Source: Candidatus Kaiserbacteria bacterium RIFCSPHIGHO2_02_FULL_49_34
GTDB taxonomy: Bacteria > Patescibacteriota > Minisyncoccia > Phycocordibacterales > UBA918
DNA: 59,040 nt
Direction of reading: 5' to 3'
Assembly (NCBI GenBank): GCA_001781205.1
Contig: MFLE01000017.1
Location: 1-59,040 of the forward strand
Positions 3,573-49,921 of the stretch are shown in pieces. The number at the start of each line of letters is the position of its first letter. Within the stretch, counting starts at the first letter, position 1. The notes beneath the pieces were generated by a model that saw only the letters and a program-made list of their open reading frames with translations, was not told the DNA's origin and searched no databases. Position numbers and translations under genes: made by a program.

Positions 3573-4931
3573 ATGAGGTACACTATACTCACCTTTTTTG
3601 TTTCTGCATTTCTTACGCTACCCTTTTCTGCCTTCGCAGAAATTCGCATCAACGAAATCGCCTGGATGGGCGGCAACGGCAATGCAAACTGCGAATGGAT
3701 AGAGCTCTATAACGATAGCGATACTGAAGTTGATATTGCAGGATGGTCATTCATGGTCAATACTACGAAGAACGCAACACTTCTCGGAAATCCTGGCGAG
3801 CTTATCATCGAGCCATATGGGTACTATGTCATTGCACGAAAGTTCAGCACCACTGCCGCATCAGCAACCACCTGTCATCCTTATTTCGAAAGTTTTGGCA
3901 ACGTATATCTCGGCGGTATTGGCTCACTCAACAATACCGCCCTCTCCATATCGCTTTTTGATCCAACGAGCGTCGAACCTATCGACAGTGTTACGGCAAC
4001 GAACGTCAATTGGTCAGAGTACAGTAAAGCAAACACTGGTAATTACGACACCGTACAGCGCAGTGGTGCCACTTGGAGCCTCGGCACACCAACTCCTGCA
4101 GCACCAAACACCGCAACGGTACCTTCCGCAACACAAACCACGAACACGGCAGCATACACGACGGTTACCACAGCTTGGGACAAAGACCAAATCCGTCAGC
4201 TTTCTATTGTTGCTCCCGATACACTGCATGCTGGTGTCCCCTTCACCTTTACTTCAATTACATCACCAAAGGATTCTCGAAAATACAAGTCGCATCTCTG
4301 GAACTTTGGTGACTTCACCACAAGTAAGCTAAGTTCTCCGACACACACCTATGCAAAGCCGGGGACCTATCTCATTCATCTTACGGTCGACGGCGACACT
4401 CCCCTTATTCTCACCAAAACAATAACGGTAATCGCACCATCGATTATCGCGACCCGCTTACTCAATGGTGATTTCGAAATCATCAACAATGGCACCACCC
4501 CGCTTGACCTATCAAACTTTACGATTGTGGGGAGTACTACGTTTACCATTCCGCAGCACAGTACGATTCTTGCTGGTGCACGCATCACTATCCCCAAACA
4601 TCTGGTACCCGATGGCCGTGGCATTGTAAATCCACAAGGAGACTTGATTGCTGCAGCGATTGATACGCCGCCGCAAATACCGCCTCCCCCACGCACAAGC
4701 CCCTACACAGGAGCAGCATCCTTTGCGGAGCCTGCACCGTTCGCCCCTACACTTCCTGAACCTGAAGATGTGTCATCGACATCTATGGAACTACCCCCGT
4801 CCAAACTACCGCAATTGAGCGCCACCAACACAGCGAACGCAACCTCAACATCCTTCCCCGCGTATCTCACGCTTGGTATTCTCCTCGTTGTCGCGGTCGG
4901 CGCAAGCCTCATAAAGACGAAACTCCAGTAA
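3573..4931 (+). CDS. secreted lamin-tail-domain / PKD-domain surface protein with C-terminal TM anchor
   Basis: Signal peptide MRYTILTFFVSAFLTLPFSAFA. LTD signature IRINEIAWMGG..NCEWIELYN..DIAGWSF. PKD-like WNFGDFTTS..HTYAKPGTYLIHLTV. A Pro-rich linker precedes the terminal TM LTLGILLVVAVGASLI. Confidence 0.75.
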   Translation: MRYTILTFFVSAFLTLPFSAFAEIRINEIAWMGGNGNANCEWIELYNDSDTEVDIAGWSFMVNTTKNATLLGNPGELIIEPYGYYVIARKFSTTAASATTCHPYFESFGNVYLGGIGSLNNTALSISLFDPTSVEPIDSVTATNVNWSEYSKANTGNYDTVQRSGATWSLGTPTPAAPNTATVPSATQTTNTAAYTTVTTAWDKDQIRQLSIVAPDTLHAGVPFTFTSITSPKDSRKYKSHLWNFGDFTTSKLSSPTHTYAKPGTYLIHLTVDGDTPLILTKTITVIAPSIIATRLLNGDFEIINNGTTPLDLSNFTIVGSTTFTIPQHSTILAGARITIPKHLVPDGRGIVNPQGDLIAAAIDTPPQIPPPPRTSPYTGAASFAEPAPFAPTLPEPEDVSSTSMELPPSKLPQLSATNTANATSTSFPAYLTLGILLVVAVGASLIKTKLQ

Positions 4932-5052
4932 TGTCCCGTGTTATTTTTTAGGTTGCATTTTTTTCGTTTTCGTATACACTGTGCGCAATCGAGGAACAGA
5001 GGCTCTTGTAGCTCAGATTCCCCGCAGAAGGACTTGTTCCTCTCTGCGAATC

Positions 5053-5123
5053 GCGGCCATGGTTAAGTGGTATAATGCGGCCTTGCCAAGGCTGAGTCGG
5101 GAGTTCGATTCTCCCTGGCCGCA
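5053..5123 (+). tRNA. tRNA-Gly (anticodon GCC)
   Basis: Hand-folded cloverleaf: acceptor GCGGCCA/TGGCCGC, anticodon loop TTGCCAA, T-arm GGGAG-TTCGATT-CTCCC. No encoded CCA. Confidence 0.9.
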
Positions 5124-5132
5124 CAAAACAAG

Positions 5133-5160
5133 AAAAACAAGGCGTCCAGCCTTGTTTTTC
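5133..5160. terminator. bidirectional intrinsic terminator
   Basis: Stem acaaggc/gccttgt with an A-run upstream and a T-run downstream. It forms the centre of a longer palindrome spanning 5098-5195. Confidence 0.7.
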
Positions 5161-5170
5161 TATGTTTTGT

Positions 5171-5348
5171 GACGAGCCAGGGAGAATCGAACGCCGGAGC
5201 CGGTATACAAGCTTTGTATTGATGTGAAGCTTTAGCGAAACACAATACAAAGGCTTGTCGGCGAGGCGGGGCCGGCAGTGCTTGGCATTTTTGGAGCGAT
5301 AGCGAACATAAAATGCCTAGCAACTGTGGCCGATTCTCCATGGCCGCC
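5171..5348 (-). ncRNA. tRNA-linked structured element, copy A (Gly-type ends)
   Basis: Shares a conserved core with copies at 19139, 19361 and 20086. Its ends, GCCATGGAGAATCG and CGATTCTCCCTGGC, pair with each other and copy the T-arm/acceptor of the adjacent tRNA-Gly. Strand assigned by core alignment only. Confidence 0.45.
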
Positions 5349-26425: not shown

Positions 26426-26501
26426 CCGCCTATAGCTCAGTTGGTAGAGCGCGAAGCTTATACCTTCGTGGTCCCAGGTTCGAGTCCTGGTGGGCGGACC
26501 A
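26426..26501 (+). tRNA. tRNA-Ile (anticodon UAU), CCA encoded
   Basis: Acceptor CCGCCTA/TGGGCGG, D-arm GCTCAGTTGGTAGAGC, anticodon stem-loop CGAAG-CTTATAC-CTTCG, T-arm CCAGG-TTCGAGT-CCTGG. Confidence 0.8.
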
Positions 26502-31070: not shown

Positions 31071-32081
31071 ATGGAATTAAGTCTTGAAGAAATTGCGCGA
31101 CAGAATGTTTCTCATATCGTAACGCAGGCACTACAACACACTTCTGCACAAAAGGCGGTTATTATTTTTGATACGCAGTTTGGTTTAACGCGGATGGTGG
31201 CTAATGCGTATCGAGTAATGCTTCCTGATGCTGTGCGCATTGATTTTGATATGTCTTCAAAAGAAGAAATTCTTGCGGCGTTTGACTTACTTTCTCCGGG
31301 CGATTTGGTTATTATGGTGCAATCAACGAATTTTCGATTGAATGATTTTCGTATTCGTTTGCATTTGTTCGCAAAGAAATTGAAAGTTATTGAGCATGCG
31401 CGACTTGCGCGGAACACTGAAGAGACTTGGGCGACCTATATTCATGCCCTTGCATACGACCAAACGTGGTATCACGAGACAGGTCATGGACTAAAGAATA
31501 TTCTTGATAGCGCGCAAGAGCTTCGATATGAATCAGGTGATGCAGTACTTGTGGTCAAGGACGGACTCGAAGCTGCAAGTTTGAATATCGGCGATTATAC
31601 CGGTATGGAAAATGTTGGTGGCTCCTTCCCTATTGGCGAAGTATTTACTGAGGCAAAAGACCTGACAAAACTCAATGGTTCTGTGTATATCGACATTTTT
31701 GCCGATACGAACTTTGAAATCGAAAAACACGAGCCATTTCGTGTTGATATTGCTGAGGGGCTCATTGTTGGATACGGAGAAAACACACCGCAGCTTTTTA
31801 AAGACATTATCGAGAAAATTAAGGAGGAAGAACGTCCAATTATCCGTGAACTTGGTTTTGGACTCAATCGTGCGATTACGCGAGAGAATTTTTTGAATGA
31901 CATCACTGCGTTTGAGCGTAATCTTGGTATGCATTTTTCAATTGGTGAGAAGCATAGCATCTATAAAAAGCCGGGGATTAAGGCATATAAGGCAAGGTAT
32001 CATATTGATGTGTTCCCTGTAATTGATCGCGTACTTGCCGATGGTGTGGTGATTTTTGAGGATGGAAGGCATATGCTCTAG
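31071..32081 (+). CDS. aminopeptidase-like protein (M29/AmpS-like, tentative)
   Basis: Start taken at MELSLEEIA. GGSFPIGEVFTEA resembles the M29 motif around the metal site. The assignment is tentative. Confidence 0.45.
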   Translation: MELSLEEIARQNVSHIVTQALQHTSAQKAVIIFDTQFGLTRMVANAYRVMLPDAVRIDFDMSSKEEILAAFDLLSPGDLVIMVQSTNFRLNDFRIRLHLFAKKLKVIEHARLARNTEETWATYIHALAYDQTWYHETGHGLKNILDSAQELRYESGDAVLVVKDGLEAASLNIGDYTGMENVGGSFPIGEVFTEAKDLTKLNGSVYIDIFADTNFEIEKHEPFRVDIAEGLIVGYGENTPQLFKDIIEKIKEEERPIIRELGFGLNRAITRENFLNDITAFERNLGMHFSIGEKHSIYKKPGIKAYKARYHIDVFPVIDRVLADGVVIFEDGRHML

Positions 32082-32082
32082 C

Positions 32083-32205
32083 TCTGGATCCCGCCAGGAT
32101 GACAAATGTTGGGTACGCTGTTTAAAATTAACAAATGGTTAAAATCGATTTTAATCATTACTTAATTTGTAGGCATATACCCTCATTTTGTCATCCTGGC
32201 GGGAT
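32083..32205. mobile_element. MITE-like inverted-repeat element, copy 1
   Basis: 19-bp perfect terminal inverted repeat atcccgccaggatgacaaa / tttgtcatcctggcgggat around the central sequence ggttaaaatcgattttaa. A partial extra arm (ctggatgttaaaatcgg) lies at 32222-32238. Confidence 0.6.
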
Positions 32206-39729: not shown

Positions 39730-39742
39730 TGAAAGCACCTTA

Positions 39743-39796
39743 ATGAAAGTTTAATACCCCCGTGTCCTCAAGGACACGGGGGTATTAAACTTTCAT
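39743..39796. terminator. 25-bp perfect hairpin after rny (terminator-like, no T-run)
   Basis: atgaaagtttaatacccccgtgtcc-tcaa-ggacacgggggtattaaactttcat. Confidence 0.5.
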
Positions 39797-39837
39797 AACC
39801 GCTTTAACTACCACTCCCACAAAAGCTACACCCGTAA

Positions 39838-40080
39838 CTTTTGTCATCCTGTAAGGACCCAGAGCGAGAATGCAGGCCCTCGGGCTTTTCATTTACCACC
39901 ATAAAGAAGTTCAACGTAATCGCTCCTTATAAAACAAAATAATAACTCGAGTTTTGTCAGTTCCCGCTCTGGATCCCGACAGGATGAGGAGGTGAATTGG
40001 TACGAAGTACCAAGAGAGGCTGCCCTGGGGTACAAAATGAGGGCAAAGTGCCTAAAAGTTGCACGTGGTTAAAATCGCAC
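39838..40080. mobile_element. mosaic of MITE-like element arms (copy 2, rearranged and truncated)
   Basis: A 3-prime-type arm ttttgtcatcctgtaaggacccagagcg (39838-39865) precedes a 5-prime-type arm cgctctggatcccgacaggatga (39965-39987). The element stops in the middle of its central palindrome (ggttaaaatcg|cac) at 40080. Confidence 0.55.
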
Positions 40081-40707
40081 TTACTCACTCCGCGGTGCAT
40101 TTCCTAGTTCGTTTGGATTATAGATATGATAAAAAAGTTCTACAATTTCATCTTTGCCAAGACGAGCGGATTTTATTCCCATACTACCAAGCCCTGACGA
40201 TACAGAGCTAACACGCTGATCAAGTTGCTCTTTACTCTTTAAAAATGACTGCTGTACTTCCTGTACCGTACTTTTCTGGAAGGTATTTGGAATAAATGAC
40301 TTCCCTTGTGAAATTGGTGCAGGATGGTACGGTACCACTACAAAGAAGTTTTTCTTCATGATTGCGACGTCTTCCGCAAATGTTTTAATAAACTCAGTAT
40401 ACTCGCGGAGCTGCACCCGCATGAGATCGTTATGTTGTGTACCTTCAAGTGAACGCAGGTACGTGAGATAGGGGCGCACATCATACCGGCGAGACTGTGC
40501 ATAAATCTGCACTGAGAAGTCGAGTGAATTGAGAAAACTCTGAAACTGCTGAATCACCGCTGTTTGTTCATCATGTGATTTAAGAGCAAGGTTAACGGAG
40601 GTGGTAAGCAAAATACCGCAGATCTGCCCATTTTGAAGTACCACGACATCGTCGTTTATTTCTTTAATGGGGACAAATGTTTGTGTTGCTGGTGTTCCTT
40701 GTGCCAT
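40081..40707 (-). pseudogene. VirB4-family T4SS ATPase, N-terminal domain only (208 aa; no ATPase domain)
   Basis: FVPIKEINDDVVVLQNG..VNLALKSHDEQTAVIQQFQSFLNSLDFSVQIYAQSRR..KNFFVVVPY..ELFYHIYNP matches the N-terminal third of Gram-positive/CPR-type VirB4. The stop codon directly abuts the half MITE. Confidence 0.6.
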
Positions 40708-40708
40708 A

Positions 40709-41131
40709 TTATTGTGTAGTTACCTCATCCTCGACGAGTTTGTTTTGAAGTTCTGCGAGCCCTCCTTCTTTGCGCGGCTGTATCGGCGCGATTGGTCGAC
40801 GTTCCTGCGGTGCTGACACTTCACCAACAATGGTGTATTTGCGTGACTCGTCGATATTCCAAAGATAGAAACGCGACTTCACTATATAGTTAAACGCTGC
40901 CTCAAGAAGGAGTTCAAAGGGGCGGTCGTTGATTTTTTGAAACGCGAGCATAGCAGCCAGTGCTGCTATTGGCAGGCCAATGATGACAAAAAATATAAAC
41001 GGGAGCGTCAGAAATACAATAAGCGCACCACCTGCCCCGCCGGCAAGATACACGAACTGCTTCCACGTAAAAGGCCCGATTACTTTTTGTTCAACTTCAA
41101 TAAATTGTGGTACTTCATACCGCATGCGCAC
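40709..41131 (-). CDS. PrgI-family (VirB3-like) T4SS membrane protein
   Basis: YEVPQFIEVEQKVIGPFTWKQFVYLAGGAG followed by two TMs. Its stop lies 1 nt before the virB4-fragment start. Confidence 0.75.
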   Translation of the reverse strand: MRMRYEVPQFIEVEQKVIGPFTWKQFVYLAGGAGGALIVFLTLPFIFFVIIGLPIAALAAMLAFQKINDRPFELLLEAAFNYIVKSRFYLWNIDESRKYTIVGEVSAPQERRPIAPIQPRKEGGLAELQNKLVEDEVTTQ

Positions 41132-41254
41132 AGTATACCACTAGACAAGAAAAACCCGCACTCTCATTGAGAATGCGGGGGTTTGGTTGTGCCCGAAGGC
41201 TTGGAAAGAACGGATTGGAGACGGCGAGAATCGAAAGATCCTCGCCGAACGGCC

Positions 41255-41905
41255 TTACTGCACGGAGACGGAGACGACGCCGGCGGCGTTGACTGCCGAA
41301 GCGGAGGCCATGCCACCAATTGCGGTCGCGCCGGAGACTTGCGTCAAGTTCGACGCCAGACCAGCGGTCTGCACCCCGACGAGCGAGGCACTTTCGATTG
41401 CAGTCGAAGCGACACCGGCGGCGTTGACCGCGGAAGCATCAGCGATTTGGTTGCACGAGTTGTTGCAGCCGCTCGCGACTGCCGAAGCAGATGCAACTTG
41501 CGTCACATCATCGACACCGGCCAGGGCCTGTACGACAGCGGAACCCGCATGGTCGATCGTCACCGACACGACGCCGGCGGCGTTGACCGCGGAAGCTGTT
41601 GCTTCCTTGACACCTACCGAGACCGCACTCGCGGACTGCACGACATCTTCAGCCAGGCCTGCAGCTTGCACTGCGACTGCCTCGCTGGTACTGCCGGTGG
41701 CAGCGCCCAGGTCGATCGAGCCGAAGTTGACGCTGTTATCGACGATGTTGGTGGTGTCGTTGTTGGTGGTGATGTTGTTGGTCACGGAGCTCAGATCGAC
41801 AGTGACGTTGTGGTGGTTGTTGTCGATGTTGTCAGCCGAAGCGGCGAAGGACGTCAACGACAGAACCAGGGCGGCGGCGGACATGGCGAAAAATTGCTTT
41901 TGCAT
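41255..41905 (-). CDS. secreted Ala/Ser/Val/Asn-rich repeat protein (curlin/HfaD-like role inferred)
   Basis: GGAG Shine-Dalgarno and signal MQKQFFAMSAAALVLSLTSFAASA. Three imperfect repeats carry ASAVNAAGV. Very high GC. A terminator lies at 41148-41180. Confidence 0.65.
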   Translation of the reverse strand: MQKQFFAMSAAALVLSLTSFAASADNIDNNHHNVTVDLSSVTNNITTNNDTTNIVDNSVNFGSIDLGAATGSTSEAVAVQAAGLAEDVVQSASAVSVGVKEATASAVNAAGVVSVTIDHAGSAVVQALAGVDDVTQVASASAVASGCNNSCNQIADASAVNAAGVASTAIESASLVGVQTAGLASNLTQVSGATAIGGMASASAVNAAGVVSVSVQ

Positions 41906-42018
41906 GGTTGAAGCTCCAGTTTGGTTTTGAAAGAACAGCTTTGGTGGTGCCCCACGGTTGCGGGAACTCGGGTAAGTTAGCACGAAACTTTTCAGGTGTC
42001 AAGCTCTCTTCGACTAGG

Positions 42019-42840
42019 TCAAATATTATTGAGCTTTTCGCGACATCCCGAGAGATACTCGAGAGTTCCTTTGTCATGCGCATATTTCCGCTGCGCCTCG
42101 TTGAGGACAAGCACGGTTGCTGCGTAATCGATAAGCCATCCGGTAGTGAGCTGAATCGGGGTGCGTTCGCCTTTTGCAAATTCAAAACTGAACATGCCTA
42201 AGCCGTCGCCTTTCCCGATAAAACGCCCAAAGCCAACACGGTCTTCAACGGCAAGGTATTCCTTCTGCAAGGAAAGCCCGTCAACCACACGCCCTGTTTC
42301 GCCATCGCTTCCCAGGAATTTCACCATACGGATATCGAGGCGGCCAACTGCCTTATAGGCAGTTTTATTGGCGTTCATACCGAGGATGCCAAAGCCTCCT
42401 GCGGTACCTGGCTGCAAATCAAGCCCTGTCACCGACCCCATAACGAGGTAGGTGGGGAGCTCGATCGTCATCTGCACACCTTTCCCGAGGTACCAATCCA
42501 CCGCGCCGCGGTAGTGTGGTGTTGCCTCAGTGGGGCGCACGCCGAGCCCCGACAGGGCTGTATAGAGCATGTCGGTTGCACCTTGAGTCATCAGGTTGCC
42601 CGTACCGCCTTCGGCGATGTTGATCTTGCCGGTTTTATCCGCAATATCAACGACACCAATGCGAATCGGTGACTGCCTCACGAATTCACGTGTGCATGCC
42701 ATCGCTTCTGCATAGGGCGATGCAAGCGTGGTGACGCCTGCGTGTGCTTCGATTGAACGTTGTGCTTCACCCGTCTGTCCACCCGTGCTTGCACAAGCGG
42801 TGACTGAAAGACACAGCAATGCCAGGAAAATTGCTTTCAT
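42019..42840 (-). CDS. CsgG/HfaB-family secretion lipoprotein
   Basis: AAGGAG Shine-Dalgarno and lipobox LSVTAC. Blocks align by eye with E. coli CsgG: IRIGVVDIADKTGK, TQGATDMLYTAL, YLVMGSVTGLD..GGFGILG, VGFGRFI. Confidence 0.8.
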   Translation of the reverse strand: MKAIFLALLCLSVTACASTGGQTGEAQRSIEAHAGVTTLASPYAEAMACTREFVRQSPIRIGVVDIADKTGKINIAEGGTGNLMTQGATDMLYTALSGLGVRPTEATPHYRGAVDWYLGKGVQMTIELPTYLVMGSVTGLDLQPGTAGGFGILGMNANKTAYKAVGRLDIRMVKFLGSDGETGRVVDGLSLQKEYLAVEDRVGFGRFIGKGDGLGMFSFEFAKGERTPIQLTTGWLIDYAATVLVLNEAQRKYAHDKGTLEYLSGCREKLNNI

Positions 42841-42853
42841 GTAGTGGAGCTCC

Positions 42854-43288
42854 TTATTGGTTGATGGTAATCGTGCCAGACGAAACATTGCCGCGTACCG
42901 TATCTGCATCGCCGTTTTGCGAGGTGTCCGTTGCGGTTGCACTGCTCGTCACATTCACGCTCGAGCCAGTTTCCGACGAAATTGTCGTGACGGTCGAGCC
43001 GTTAATGTTCGAGACTTGCGAACTTTGTGCCTGACATGAGCCTTCAACGTCGCAATTCTGCGTGGAATAGAAATTCCCGTAGTAGTGCTGCGTTGTCGTA
43101 ACCTTGGTACGGTTACCCAAGAGCTCGTTGCGGAGCATATGCTCCTTGAGTGCGAGGTCGATGATTTCGTAACGGGGTGTGAGTGACGTGGTACTTCCCC
43201 ACGCACGCGCACCATCGCCCGCATTCGCGTATTGCGCCGCCGTAGCAGCAAGTGCGAACCCAGCAATGATCAACAGTTTGATCTTCAT
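42854..43288 (-). CDS. small secreted Ser/Thr/Asn/Gln-rich protein (HfaA/minor-curlin-like role inferred)
   Basis: GGAGAG Shine-Dalgarno and signal MKIKLLIIAGFALAATAAQYANA. The C-terminal half reads QSSQVSNINGSTVTTISSETGSSVNVTSSATATDTSQNG. Lies 13 nt upstream of the CsgG-like gene. Confidence 0.6.
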   Translation of the reverse strand: MKIKLLIIAGFALAATAAQYANAGDGARAWGSTTSLTPRYEIIDLALKEHMLRNELLGNRTKVTTTQHYYGNFYSTQNCDVEGSCQAQSSQVSNINGSTVTTISSETGSSVNVTSSATATDTSQNGDADTVRGNVSSGTITINQ

Positions 43289-43390
43289 ACTTTCTCTCCA
43301 ATTGATGTAAAAGAACCTCATCACCACAGGTGATGCCAAAAGAAATTATCACAAAATCAACATAATGTCAATGGTTTCATATCAGGCGTA

Positions 43391-43419
43391 TTGACTTATG
43401 ATATTATTTATGGTATAAA
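43391..43419 (+). promoter_or_regulatory. sigma-70-type promoter
   Basis: TTGACT, 17 nt spacer, TATAAA, with TGG immediately upstream of the -10 box. About 40 nt upstream of the ATG at 43459. Confidence 0.6.
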
Positions 43420-43458
43420 TAACCTGTTGATAGTCCTTTGAAATTTTGGAGAAATCTG

Positions 43459-43749
43459 ATGAATACTTTCTTCTTGGTTTTTGCACTCATTGCCCTTGCA
43501 CCGTTCGTCTATCACATTCTGGTACATGGAGTAAAAACTCCCCTGCCAGAAGCTGAGACAACAAGCGGTATGTTGCGTGTCCGTTATTGGCCAAGTGCTG
43601 CTTTCCTTCTCTGGATAGCATTCAATGCACTGGTACTGATGTCACTTCTGGCTTCGCCGGATGCGGCGTTTATGCACAGTGTACACCACGAGACACTCCA
43701 CTACGTTCTTTATACCCCCATCCGTATCTTTGCCGAATTTTTCGGTTAA
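43459..43749 (+). CDS. small hypothetical membrane protein
   Basis: ATG at 43459 inside track ORF 43438-43749 (which begins at TTG). Two hydrophobic helices. Confidence 0.45.
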   Translation: MNTFFLVFALIALAPFVYHILVHGVKTPLPEAETTSGMLRVRYWPSAAFLLWIAFNALVLMSLLASPDAAFMHSVHHETLHYVLYTPIRIFAEFFG

Positions 43750-49731: not shown

Positions 49732-49776
49732 TAAAAAAAAATACACTCTCTTTAATATGAGGGTGTATTTTTTTGA

Positions 49777-49905
49777 CTCTGGATCCCGTCAGGATAAAAA
49801 AATGAAGGGAATAAGTTATGAATTTAGTGATGGTTAAAATCGATTTTAACCATCACATAATTTAAAACATCACACTTAACATTTGTTGTCTTGACAGGAT
49901 CCAGG
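49777..49905. mobile_element. MITE-like inverted-repeat element, copy 3
   Basis: Arms ctctggatcccgtcaggat / ttgacaggatccag around the central palindrome ggttaaaatcgattttaacc. Confidence 0.55.
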
Positions 49906-49921
49906 CGTTAGAGAAAAATAC

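Follow-up and report, generated by a model that had tools for sequence, protein, structure and literature searches.

The window analysed here is a stretch of 59,040 nucleotides from Candidatus Kaiserbacteria bacterium RIFCSPHIGHO2_02_FULL_49_34 (contig MFLE01000017.1, forward strand). At positions 41140-43345 it contains a GC-rich island of three genes, called A, B and C below, which probably form a genuine operon of the Candidate Phyla Radiation (CPR) for the export and anchoring of a surface fibre or adhesin. The three genes point in one direction on the minus strand, with the stop of gene A 13 nt ahead of gene B and a spacer of 113 nt between B and C. Each of them has a GGAG sequence 8-10 nt 5' of its ATG, and all three proteins carry predicted N-terminal export signals (Sec for A and C, lipoprotein for B). 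An earlier note on this DNA, made from the sequence alone, had described the same arrangement, with products of 144, 273 and 216 aa, and all of its elements were found. The genes and the repeats in gene C are as follows.

42854..43288, minus strand: gene A, 144 aa, Sec-exported, signal MKIKLLIIAGFALAATAAQYANA followed by GD (...ANA before GD)
42019..42840, minus strand: gene B, 273 aa, lipoprotein with lipobox V-T-A-C16, CsgG/HfaB superfamily by sequence
41255..41905, minus strand: gene C, 216 aa, Sec-exported, signal ...ASA before DN
41259-41302, 41394-41437 and 41553-41596: DNA repeats in gene C

The island has a GC content of 55.6%, against 46.4% in the rest of the window. Among all 2.2-kb windows, the GC maximum falls on 41140-43345 (z=3.1), and the peak of the tetranucleotide distance coincides with it. 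In 300-nt windows, the GC content is 0.62-0.63 across 41200-41799 and 0.58 across 42250-42699, with flank values of 0.42 at 40000-40449 and 0.38 at 43300-43599. The values computed for 60-nt lines (68.3 and 63.3% at 41281-41400; 51.7, 60 and 65% at 42361-42540; 43.3% at 40141-40200) are near the hand counts from which the island was originally proposed. The GC content at third codon positions (GC3) is 0.62 in A, 0.56 in B and 0.73 in C, compared with 0.441±0.078 in the 54 other open reading frames (ORFs) of the window, so the GC excess of the island is present at the codon level. Thus, the island differs from its flanks in GC, GC3 and tetranucleotide composition, as the earlier note had expected. 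The GC3 excess is strong in C alone, and B is not above ClpP (0.556); the overall deviation from the host in composition and codon usage decreases from C (strong) through A (moderate) to B (marginal). There are no ribosomal protein genes in the window, and the GC3 of ClpP, SOD and NDK is 0.52-0.56. Expression level can account for the GC3 excess of B, but not for that of C.

Of the three proteins, only B belongs to a known family. In a search with the Pfam CsgG model (PF03783), by which the earlier note proposed to check its assignment as a CsgG-type lipoprotein, B scored 40.9 bits against a cutoff of 20.8 (E 1.9e-10), and the assignment is supported. Its best NCBIfam match was HfaB (NF037935), with 48.9 bits against an equivalog cutoff of 300, and a profile built from its 40 nearest relatives matched E. 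coli CsgG over residues 3-245 (E 4e-15). Weak HfaB matches were given by 38 of the 40 closest B-family members (best E 1.5e-29) and CsgG matches by 26, and none came near the HfaB cutoff. On these sequence comparisons, B belongs to the CsgG/HfaB superfamily, but it is not a CsgG orthologue and not an HfaB equivalog.

The AlphaFold (AF2) model of B, built with the alignment of 40 relatives, reached a predicted local distance difference test score (pLDDT) of 88.6 and a predicted template modelling score (pTM) of 0.79. The strands predicted at residues 131-152/155-174 and 184-208/215-226 form two long hairpins (131-174 and 184-226), which in the prediction correspond to TM1 and TM2 of CsgG. The top Foldseek matches of the model were the membrane-inserted forms of CsgG (6l7a/6l7c/6si7/4uv3; E 3e-15 to 1e-12, TM 0.57-0.65), whereas the soluble pre-pore 4uv2 was a poorer match (E 1e-10, TM about 0.45); weaker matches included HpaA, LptE and TraT. 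The hairpins are amphipathic, with hydrophobic/polar face means of +1.4/-0.4, +1.4/-0.9 and +1.0/-0.8, and the contrast is at least as large as in E. coli CsgG. As modelled, B would adopt the fold of membrane-inserted CsgG, including its two long amphipathic β-hairpins.

Protein A contains an A-x-x-W motif in its N-terminal part, a Cys pair (NC..GSCQ), an NINGST motif and a Thr/Ser/Asn-rich tail. In an alignment of the A family from 10 loci, W30 is invariant and lies in the A-x-x-W motif right past the signal peptide, and most members share the Cys pair (NC..CQ), an N(I/V)NGS motif and the Thr/Ser/Asn tail. Protein C is an acidic Ala/Val/Ser/Asn protein (1 K+R, 15 D+E) with an Asn-rich N-terminal part containing NHHN and three repeats of 44-54 aa. 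Each repeat ends in ASAVNAAGV (aa 104, 157 and 202), and the middle one has GCNNSC. The DNA repeat CGGCGGCGTTGAC occurs at 41281, 41416 and 41575 (0.09 chance matches expected), in agreement with the threefold repeat read in C by the earlier note. The architecture of C recurs in L005, L015 and L016, three of the related loci described below. The closer members of the C family (window, L005, L012, L015 and L016) begin with an Asn-rich part, in which the copies of the window and of L015 have NHHN. They also share three repeats marked by the motifs Q..Q and (A/T)N(A/V)AG, the middle one of which contains GC(x2-3)C. Neither A nor C had a match in Pfam, NCBIfam or PDB sequences, and profiles of the two families found no chain at E<=1 in PDB, which should include the solved curli proteins. 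A kinship between A and C was also considered and rejected, as the two share nothing apart from their signal peptides. Opposite gene C there is a long spurious ORF (41183-41930, plus strand), caused by the GC-rich, Ala-rich sequence of the gene. Public gene calls lie on the wrong strand of C in three related loci (L012 7141-7884, L015 8039-8734, L016 7083-7847), and the C family is therefore under-represented in protein databases.

The sharp change in composition, and nothing else, favours a chimeric assembly or a contaminated bin, an explanation which the earlier note had raised. However, both junctions are identical in separate JGI and ENA assemblies. A 182-kb JGI contig is 99.995% identical across 20.8 kb of the locus, an ENA contig is 100% identical over 39730-43000, spanning the 41140 junction, and a third JGI contig likewise matches the locus. 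The same arrangement is also present in a second species, on contigs of 58 kb and 370 kb. An artefact of this kind has practically no probability left and is refuted, short of read-level checks.

The second species is Candidatus Kaiserbacteria RIFCSPLOWO2_12_FULL_50_10 (MFMN01000015.1, the 58-kb contig; L007), in which the cassette occupies the equivalent site; the 370-kb contig, from JGI, carries the same sequence. No other GTDB species genome was found to contain a close relative, and pattern scans of genomes and metagenomes gave only the L007-type species. The gene order in L007 is penicillin-binding protein, tRNA synthetase, SurA-N-like, acylphosphatase, RluA, small membrane ORF, A, B, C, PrgI, TraC-like and RNase Y, so that the comparison between rny and the RluA-family gene suggested by the earlier note finds the cassette at the same site. 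The proteins flanking the cassette are 80-86% identical between the two species, and the host is a CPR bacterium, as had been supposed. The identities of A (46%), B (62%) and C (27%) resemble those of other non-housekeeping neighbours, and a rough neighbour-joining tree places the B proteins of both species as sisters. The noncoding features kept between the two loci are TTGACA and the leader before A, TTGACA-17-TAnnTT in the B-C spacer, the terminator, and the -10 box at prgI, and the ORFs, ribosome-binding sites, promoter and terminator of the cassette are intact in both. Since the same genes, site and noncoding features are present in both species, the arrangement is ancestral to them. A 25-nt direct repeat (41107-41131 and 43188-43212, 20/25 matches) was considered as an insertion scar, but only 11/25 positions match in L007, so it is probably due to chance. 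Divergent from the cassette lies a 103-aa hydrophobic-rich ORF (43438-43749, plus strand), which probably codes for a small membrane protein. It has the same position in L007 (27% identity), and it is not beside the cassette at most other loci.

Several putative expression signals accompany the three genes.

43343..43371, minus strand: promoter-like element 5' of gene A, read from the sequence; TTGACA at 43371-43366 and AT-rich -10 region GATAATTT at 43350-43343
43319..43335, minus strand: small hairpin CATCACCTGTGGTGATG in the 5' untranslated region (5'UTR) of gene A, then the conserved TCTTTTACATCA..GGAG leader
41974..42002, minus strand: promoter-like TTGACA-17 nt-TAACTT in the 113-nt B-C spacer, immediately past the B stop, read from the sequence
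41145..41179, minus strand: intrinsic terminator of the cassette, CCCGCATTCTCAATGAGAGTGCGGG + TTTTTCTTGT; stem-loop at 41179-41155, then a T-run

The TTGACA element 5' of gene A, which a simple promoter scan left unscored, is kept in L007 together with the ensuing 5'UTR and would function as a promoter. TTGACA-17-TAnnTT likewise follows the B stop in L007 and L005, and the element between B and C may be a second promoter. The T-run of the terminator stops 17 nt short of the GTG at 41131 (prgI start), the distance given by the earlier note. In L007, a terminator with a different sequence is found in the equivalent position. An extended -10-like TGgTATACT box (41123-41140) lies directly 5' of the prgI start (GTG 41131 or ATG 41125), and its TATACT core is conserved in L007. 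The box abuts the prgI start, which suggests a leaderless prgI transcript beginning right past the cassette terminator. The earlier note had viewed the island as inserted into the promoter of an operon for a type IV secretion system (T4SS), beside T4SS remnants. This view is not supported, because the order of terminator, extended -10 box and prgI, as well as the upstream promoter and 5'UTR, is conserved in L007. PrgI (140 aa) and the 208-aa TraC-like protein (40081-41131) are 68% and 86% identical to their L007 counterparts, so both are under constraint and not decaying. In addition, PrgI/VirB3 is a standard component of the origin-proximal T4SS of CPR bacteria (PMC12102498). No VirB4 ATPase domain was found among the scanned neighbouring genes.

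Word-index homology searches returned 4 matches for B, none for C (not even C itself) and 4 for the 40-sequence profile, and the B family was opened up by an exhaustive HMMER search of 1.84 billion representatives, with 228 clusters at E<=1e-3 and 13 at E<=1e-30. Every close relative with a readable context has the same layout, in which the first gene codes for a small secreted protein (about 120-170 aa), the next for a CsgG-like protein (about 280-300 aa) and the last for a secreted Ala/Val/Asn/Gln repeat protein (about 145-245 aa). This cassette is present in at least 8 further small-genome contigs. The CPR-labelled carriers are two distinct loci from three NCBI assemblies (L008/L009 and L010) with the NCBI label 'Candidatus Paceibacterota', which is the phylum Minisyncoccota (CPR). 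The other small-genome carriers, with compact housekeeping contexts, are L005, L012, L013, L014, L015 (Rifle sediment) and L016. Where the host has 55-63% GC, the composition of the cassette is native to it, whereas in hosts of 42-46% GC (window, L007, L012 and L015) it is a GC-rich island. As judged from these sequences, the cassette is a recurrent CPR module, and the idea of a one-off island of foreign DNA, an origin that the earlier note had offered as one of two options, is not supported.

The neighbours of the cassette vary among these loci. In L010 (5261-11881), it lies 3' of rpsL-rpsG and a CofD gene and immediately 5' of fusA, and the usual str-operon neighbourhood is thus interrupted. 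Directly 5' of a complete A-B-C cassette, L016 carries a gene for a 531-aa fusion (3698-5293) of a CsgG-like domain without lipobox and an HfsH/IcaB-like polysaccharide deacetylase, and in L015 genes for a family 2 glycosyltransferase (GT2) and a deacetylase adjoin the cassette. The A+B pair is also found in Proteobacteria, in a Brucella plasmid (NZ_CP137606.1) and in L017, where the small gene 5' of the 'CsgG/HfaB family protein' genes codes for the same N-terminal domain as A (hhalign probability 83.5%, E 8e-6) and a two-component system accompanies the cassette. The Brucella pseudintermedia plasmid was the single plasmid match of the family, and no relative of the cassette was found on the viral contigs searched. 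Since A and B are shared between CPR and Proteobacteria and the third gene has no detectable homology, the conserved core consists of A+B, beside a variable third gene.

These distributions also bear on whether the island is recent foreign DNA from a diderm, carried as functionless or decaying cargo beside the T4SS genes. The CsgG family is typical of diderms, and the deviation in GC, GC3 and tetranucleotide composition and the A+B relatives in Proteobacteria are consistent with such an import. However, two species with housekeeping proteins just 80-86% identical both keep the ORFs and signals intact, and all the closest relatives are in CPR-type contexts. Moreover, neither an integrase, a tRNA junction nor a conserved flanking repeat was found at the island borders, and no viral contig was found as a carrier. 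We therefore give a recent diderm origin very little credence and regard it as already largely refuted. Exchange among CPR lineages, rather than diderm import, is the simplest source of the GC excess. The cassette would have originated in, or been exchanged with, GC-rich CPR lineages in which it is compositionally native, and the GC3 excess has persisted in two long-diverged species (window and L007). Codon selection and the Ala/Gly/Val-rich composition of the proteins may add to the excess.

The island shares several properties with the curli system of E. coli. Like CsgG (PF03783; 4UV3, 6L7A, 6SI7), protein B is a lipoprotein of similar size, is homologous over nearly the full length (E 4e-15), and has the same predicted fold with two extended hairpins, and both systems encode small secreted partners with Asn/Gln/Ser/Gly/Ala repeats. 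However, B is only about 20% identical to CsgG, it has A-E-G-G-T-G in place of Y51..N55-F56, and its family has an invariant pair, Cys49 and Cys266. When curli membership was tested, neither the constriction residues Y51/N55/F56 nor adjacent CsgA, CsgB, CsgE or CsgF were found, and Pfam, NCBIfam and PDB profile searches of A and C detected no csgE, csgF, csgA or csgB homologues or curlin repeats. Furthermore, the host of the cassette is regarded as having no outer membrane.

The layout is also similar to that of HfaA-HfaB-HfaD in Caulobacter crescentus, with a small secreted protein, a CsgG-like lipoprotein and a larger secreted protein in the same order and of similar sizes. HfaB is the best NCBIfam match of B, and CPR-type loci tie the family to an HfsH-like deacetylase (L016) and a GT2 (L015). 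In Caulobacter, HfaB is needed for the surface placement of HfaA and HfaD, which form SDS-resistant multimers at the surface that anchor a deacetylated GlcNAc polysaccharide (PMC6707917; bioRxiv 10.1101/2022.07.20.500906). However, the window has no hfs genes, and its host is regarded as having no outer membrane and has no stalk. No HfaA- or HfaD-named NCBIfam match was obtained for ten A- and C-family proteins at E<=10, the presence of such models in the library being unconfirmed. Thus, of the likeness to hfa and curli claimed by the earlier note, the gene order and the superfamily of B stand, but the HfaB cutoff is missed by a wide score difference (48.9 vs 300 bits) and no HfaA, HfaD or curlin signal was detected in A and C. 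By any tested criterion except layout, the operon appears to be neither curli nor hfa.

The uncharacterised 'CsgG/HfaB family protein' cassette of Brucella pseudintermedia (NZ_CP137606.1, WP_104756879.1 and neighbours) has the same three-gene layout. Its small upstream protein shares an A-x-D-W N-terminal domain with A, its B-like protein gives 88 bits against HfaB, a score comparable to that of B, and its third gene codes for a secreted Ala/Val/Asn/Gly-rich protein that is compositionally like C. Unlike the window, Brucella is a true diderm, its B-like protein is just 26% identical to B and has a long C-terminal extension, and its cassette lies beside genes for an outer-membrane protein and an EAL protein, which follow it, and for a response regulator and a two-component system.

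Taken together, we consider it probable, though well short of certain, that A, B and C form a genuine chromosomal three-gene CPR operon encoding a module that exports and anchors a surface fibre or adhesin in the manner of curli or the holdfast anchor. This role is suggested by the homologues of B and by the analogous curli and Caulobacter holdfast-anchor systems. B would oligomerise as a CsgG-like ring outside the cytoplasmic membrane. A is tightly coupled to B (13-nt spacer), the A+B pair being conserved in both CPR and Proteobacteria, and is probably an adaptor or nucleator bound to B, with a role like that of CsgF/CsgB or HfaA. C has its own conserved promoter-like element and probably serves as the abundant subunit that polymerises, with a role like that of CsgA or HfaD. 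The product would be a fibre or anchor for attachment to a host cell or surface. The fibre may also tether a deacetylated polysaccharide adhesin, a link drawn from the CsgG-deacetylase fusion beside the cassette in L016 and the GT2 and deacetylase genes adjoining it in L015. In the literature searched, no paper linked CsgG, curli or holdfast systems with CPR bacteria.

Several observations weigh against this interpretation. The CsgG constriction residues align to the Gly-rich A-E-G-G-T-G loop in B, the GGTG of which is conserved in the B family. The lipobox is present in 113 of 152 B-family representatives, and about a quarter of the family lacks the lipobox Cys, including the copy of the sister species. 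A and C have no detectable similarity to curlin, CsgB, CsgE, CsgF, HfaA or HfaD in Pfam, NCBIfam and PDB, C has no detectable homology to the third protein of the proteobacterial cassettes, and its fold eluded prediction, the single-sequence AF2 model being uninformative (pLDDT 33.5). The CPR identity of L012-L016 and L005 is derived from gene content alone. The curli channel is a nonamer in an outer membrane, and in CsgG the lipid anchor and the barrel are in one and the same membrane. CPR bacteria are regarded as having no outer membrane (PMC12102498). Consequently, there is no obvious membrane for a barrel formed by B.

This difficulty would disappear if B were a CsgG-fold lipoprotein scaffold in the wall zone without a transmembrane channel. 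Its hairpins would be tucked or bound to a non-lipid partner, its ring would organise or tether a component of a polysaccharide or S-layer kind, with A and C as accessory wall proteins. The CsgG-like α/β core is common to the non-channel lipoproteins HpaA, LptE and TraT, which are among the weaker Foldseek matches. CPR bacteria are not expected to have an outer membrane (PMC12102498), genes for polysaccharide deacetylase and GT2 adjoin members of the family or are fused to them, and the CsgG constriction loop is not conserved. However, the AF2 hairpins are extended and of high confidence, the membrane-bound forms of CsgG fit the model better than the pre-pore, and the alternating hydrophobic faces of the hairpins are hard to explain without lipid or another hydrophobic environment. 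A wall scaffold of this kind is possible but unlikely.

Another way to provide a membrane is insertion of B as a barrel into the membrane of the host cell, where it would be a pore or conduit, while A and C form the attachment structure. To our knowledge, no CsgG-family member acts in trans, and the idea is pure inference. It agrees with a CPR cell that has no outer membrane of its own for the barrel, and with the several family members, including the sister-species copy, in which an ordinary secretion signal replaces the lipobox, which would give a soluble pre-pore like non-lipidated CsgG (4uv2). CPR bacteria are also episymbionts that rely on host metabolites (PMC12102498). Nevertheless, most family members, the window copy included, are lipoproteins, and the proteobacterial relatives are in ordinary biofilm-type contexts with EAL and two-component genes. 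Insertion of B into the host cell therefore seems improbable. In a broader form, a CsgG-type lipid-inserting barrel might be a working, conserved envelope part in presumed single-membrane bacteria, either in an unrecognised outer lipid layer of some Parcubacteria/Kaiserbacteria or by in-trans insertion into the host membrane as an attachment or uptake conduit. We regard this as a doubtful proposition, with the odds clearly against it. The preferred reading remains the export and anchoring module set out above.

Some features of the window outside the cassette were also observed. Between rny and the TraC-like gene, the window has 351 nt (39730-40080), compared with 42 nt in the sister species. 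This gap contains a perfect bidirectional terminator hairpin (39741-39797) and a strongly structured stretch of about 260 nt with a long inverted repeat (39847-39987). RNA folding of this stretch gave z = -6.0 for the minus strand and -4.5 for the plus strand, and no Rfam family matched it. Short pieces of the 39847-39987 hairpin element recur intergenically at 32077-32110 and 49765-49921 in the window and at 1148-1188 in L007, and the region 49765-49921 is itself a palindromic stretch of about 157 nt. These hairpins suggest a family of long-hairpin elements similar to miniature inverted-repeat transposable elements (MITE) or repetitive extragenic palindromes (REP). In addition, ARAGORN predicts a tRNA-Ile with the anticodon TAT at 26426-26501, and Rfam recognises the same sequence as a tRNA. 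In most bacteria, AUA is decoded instead by a lysidine-modified CAU tRNA.

The attachment of CPR/Patescibacteria to their hosts, and the exploitation of these hosts, are little understood, and the main candidates so far are type IV pili and monoderm-type T4SS. To these, the conserved and separately promoted cassette adds a concrete candidate in Parcubacteria-type lineages, a surface fibre or adhesin system. At the same time, the presence of an outer-membrane barrel family with intact amphipathic hairpins in presumed monoderms is a sharp structural paradox. Resolving it would shed light on the envelope architecture of CPR bacteria and on how far the CsgG (type VIII) secretion family extends.

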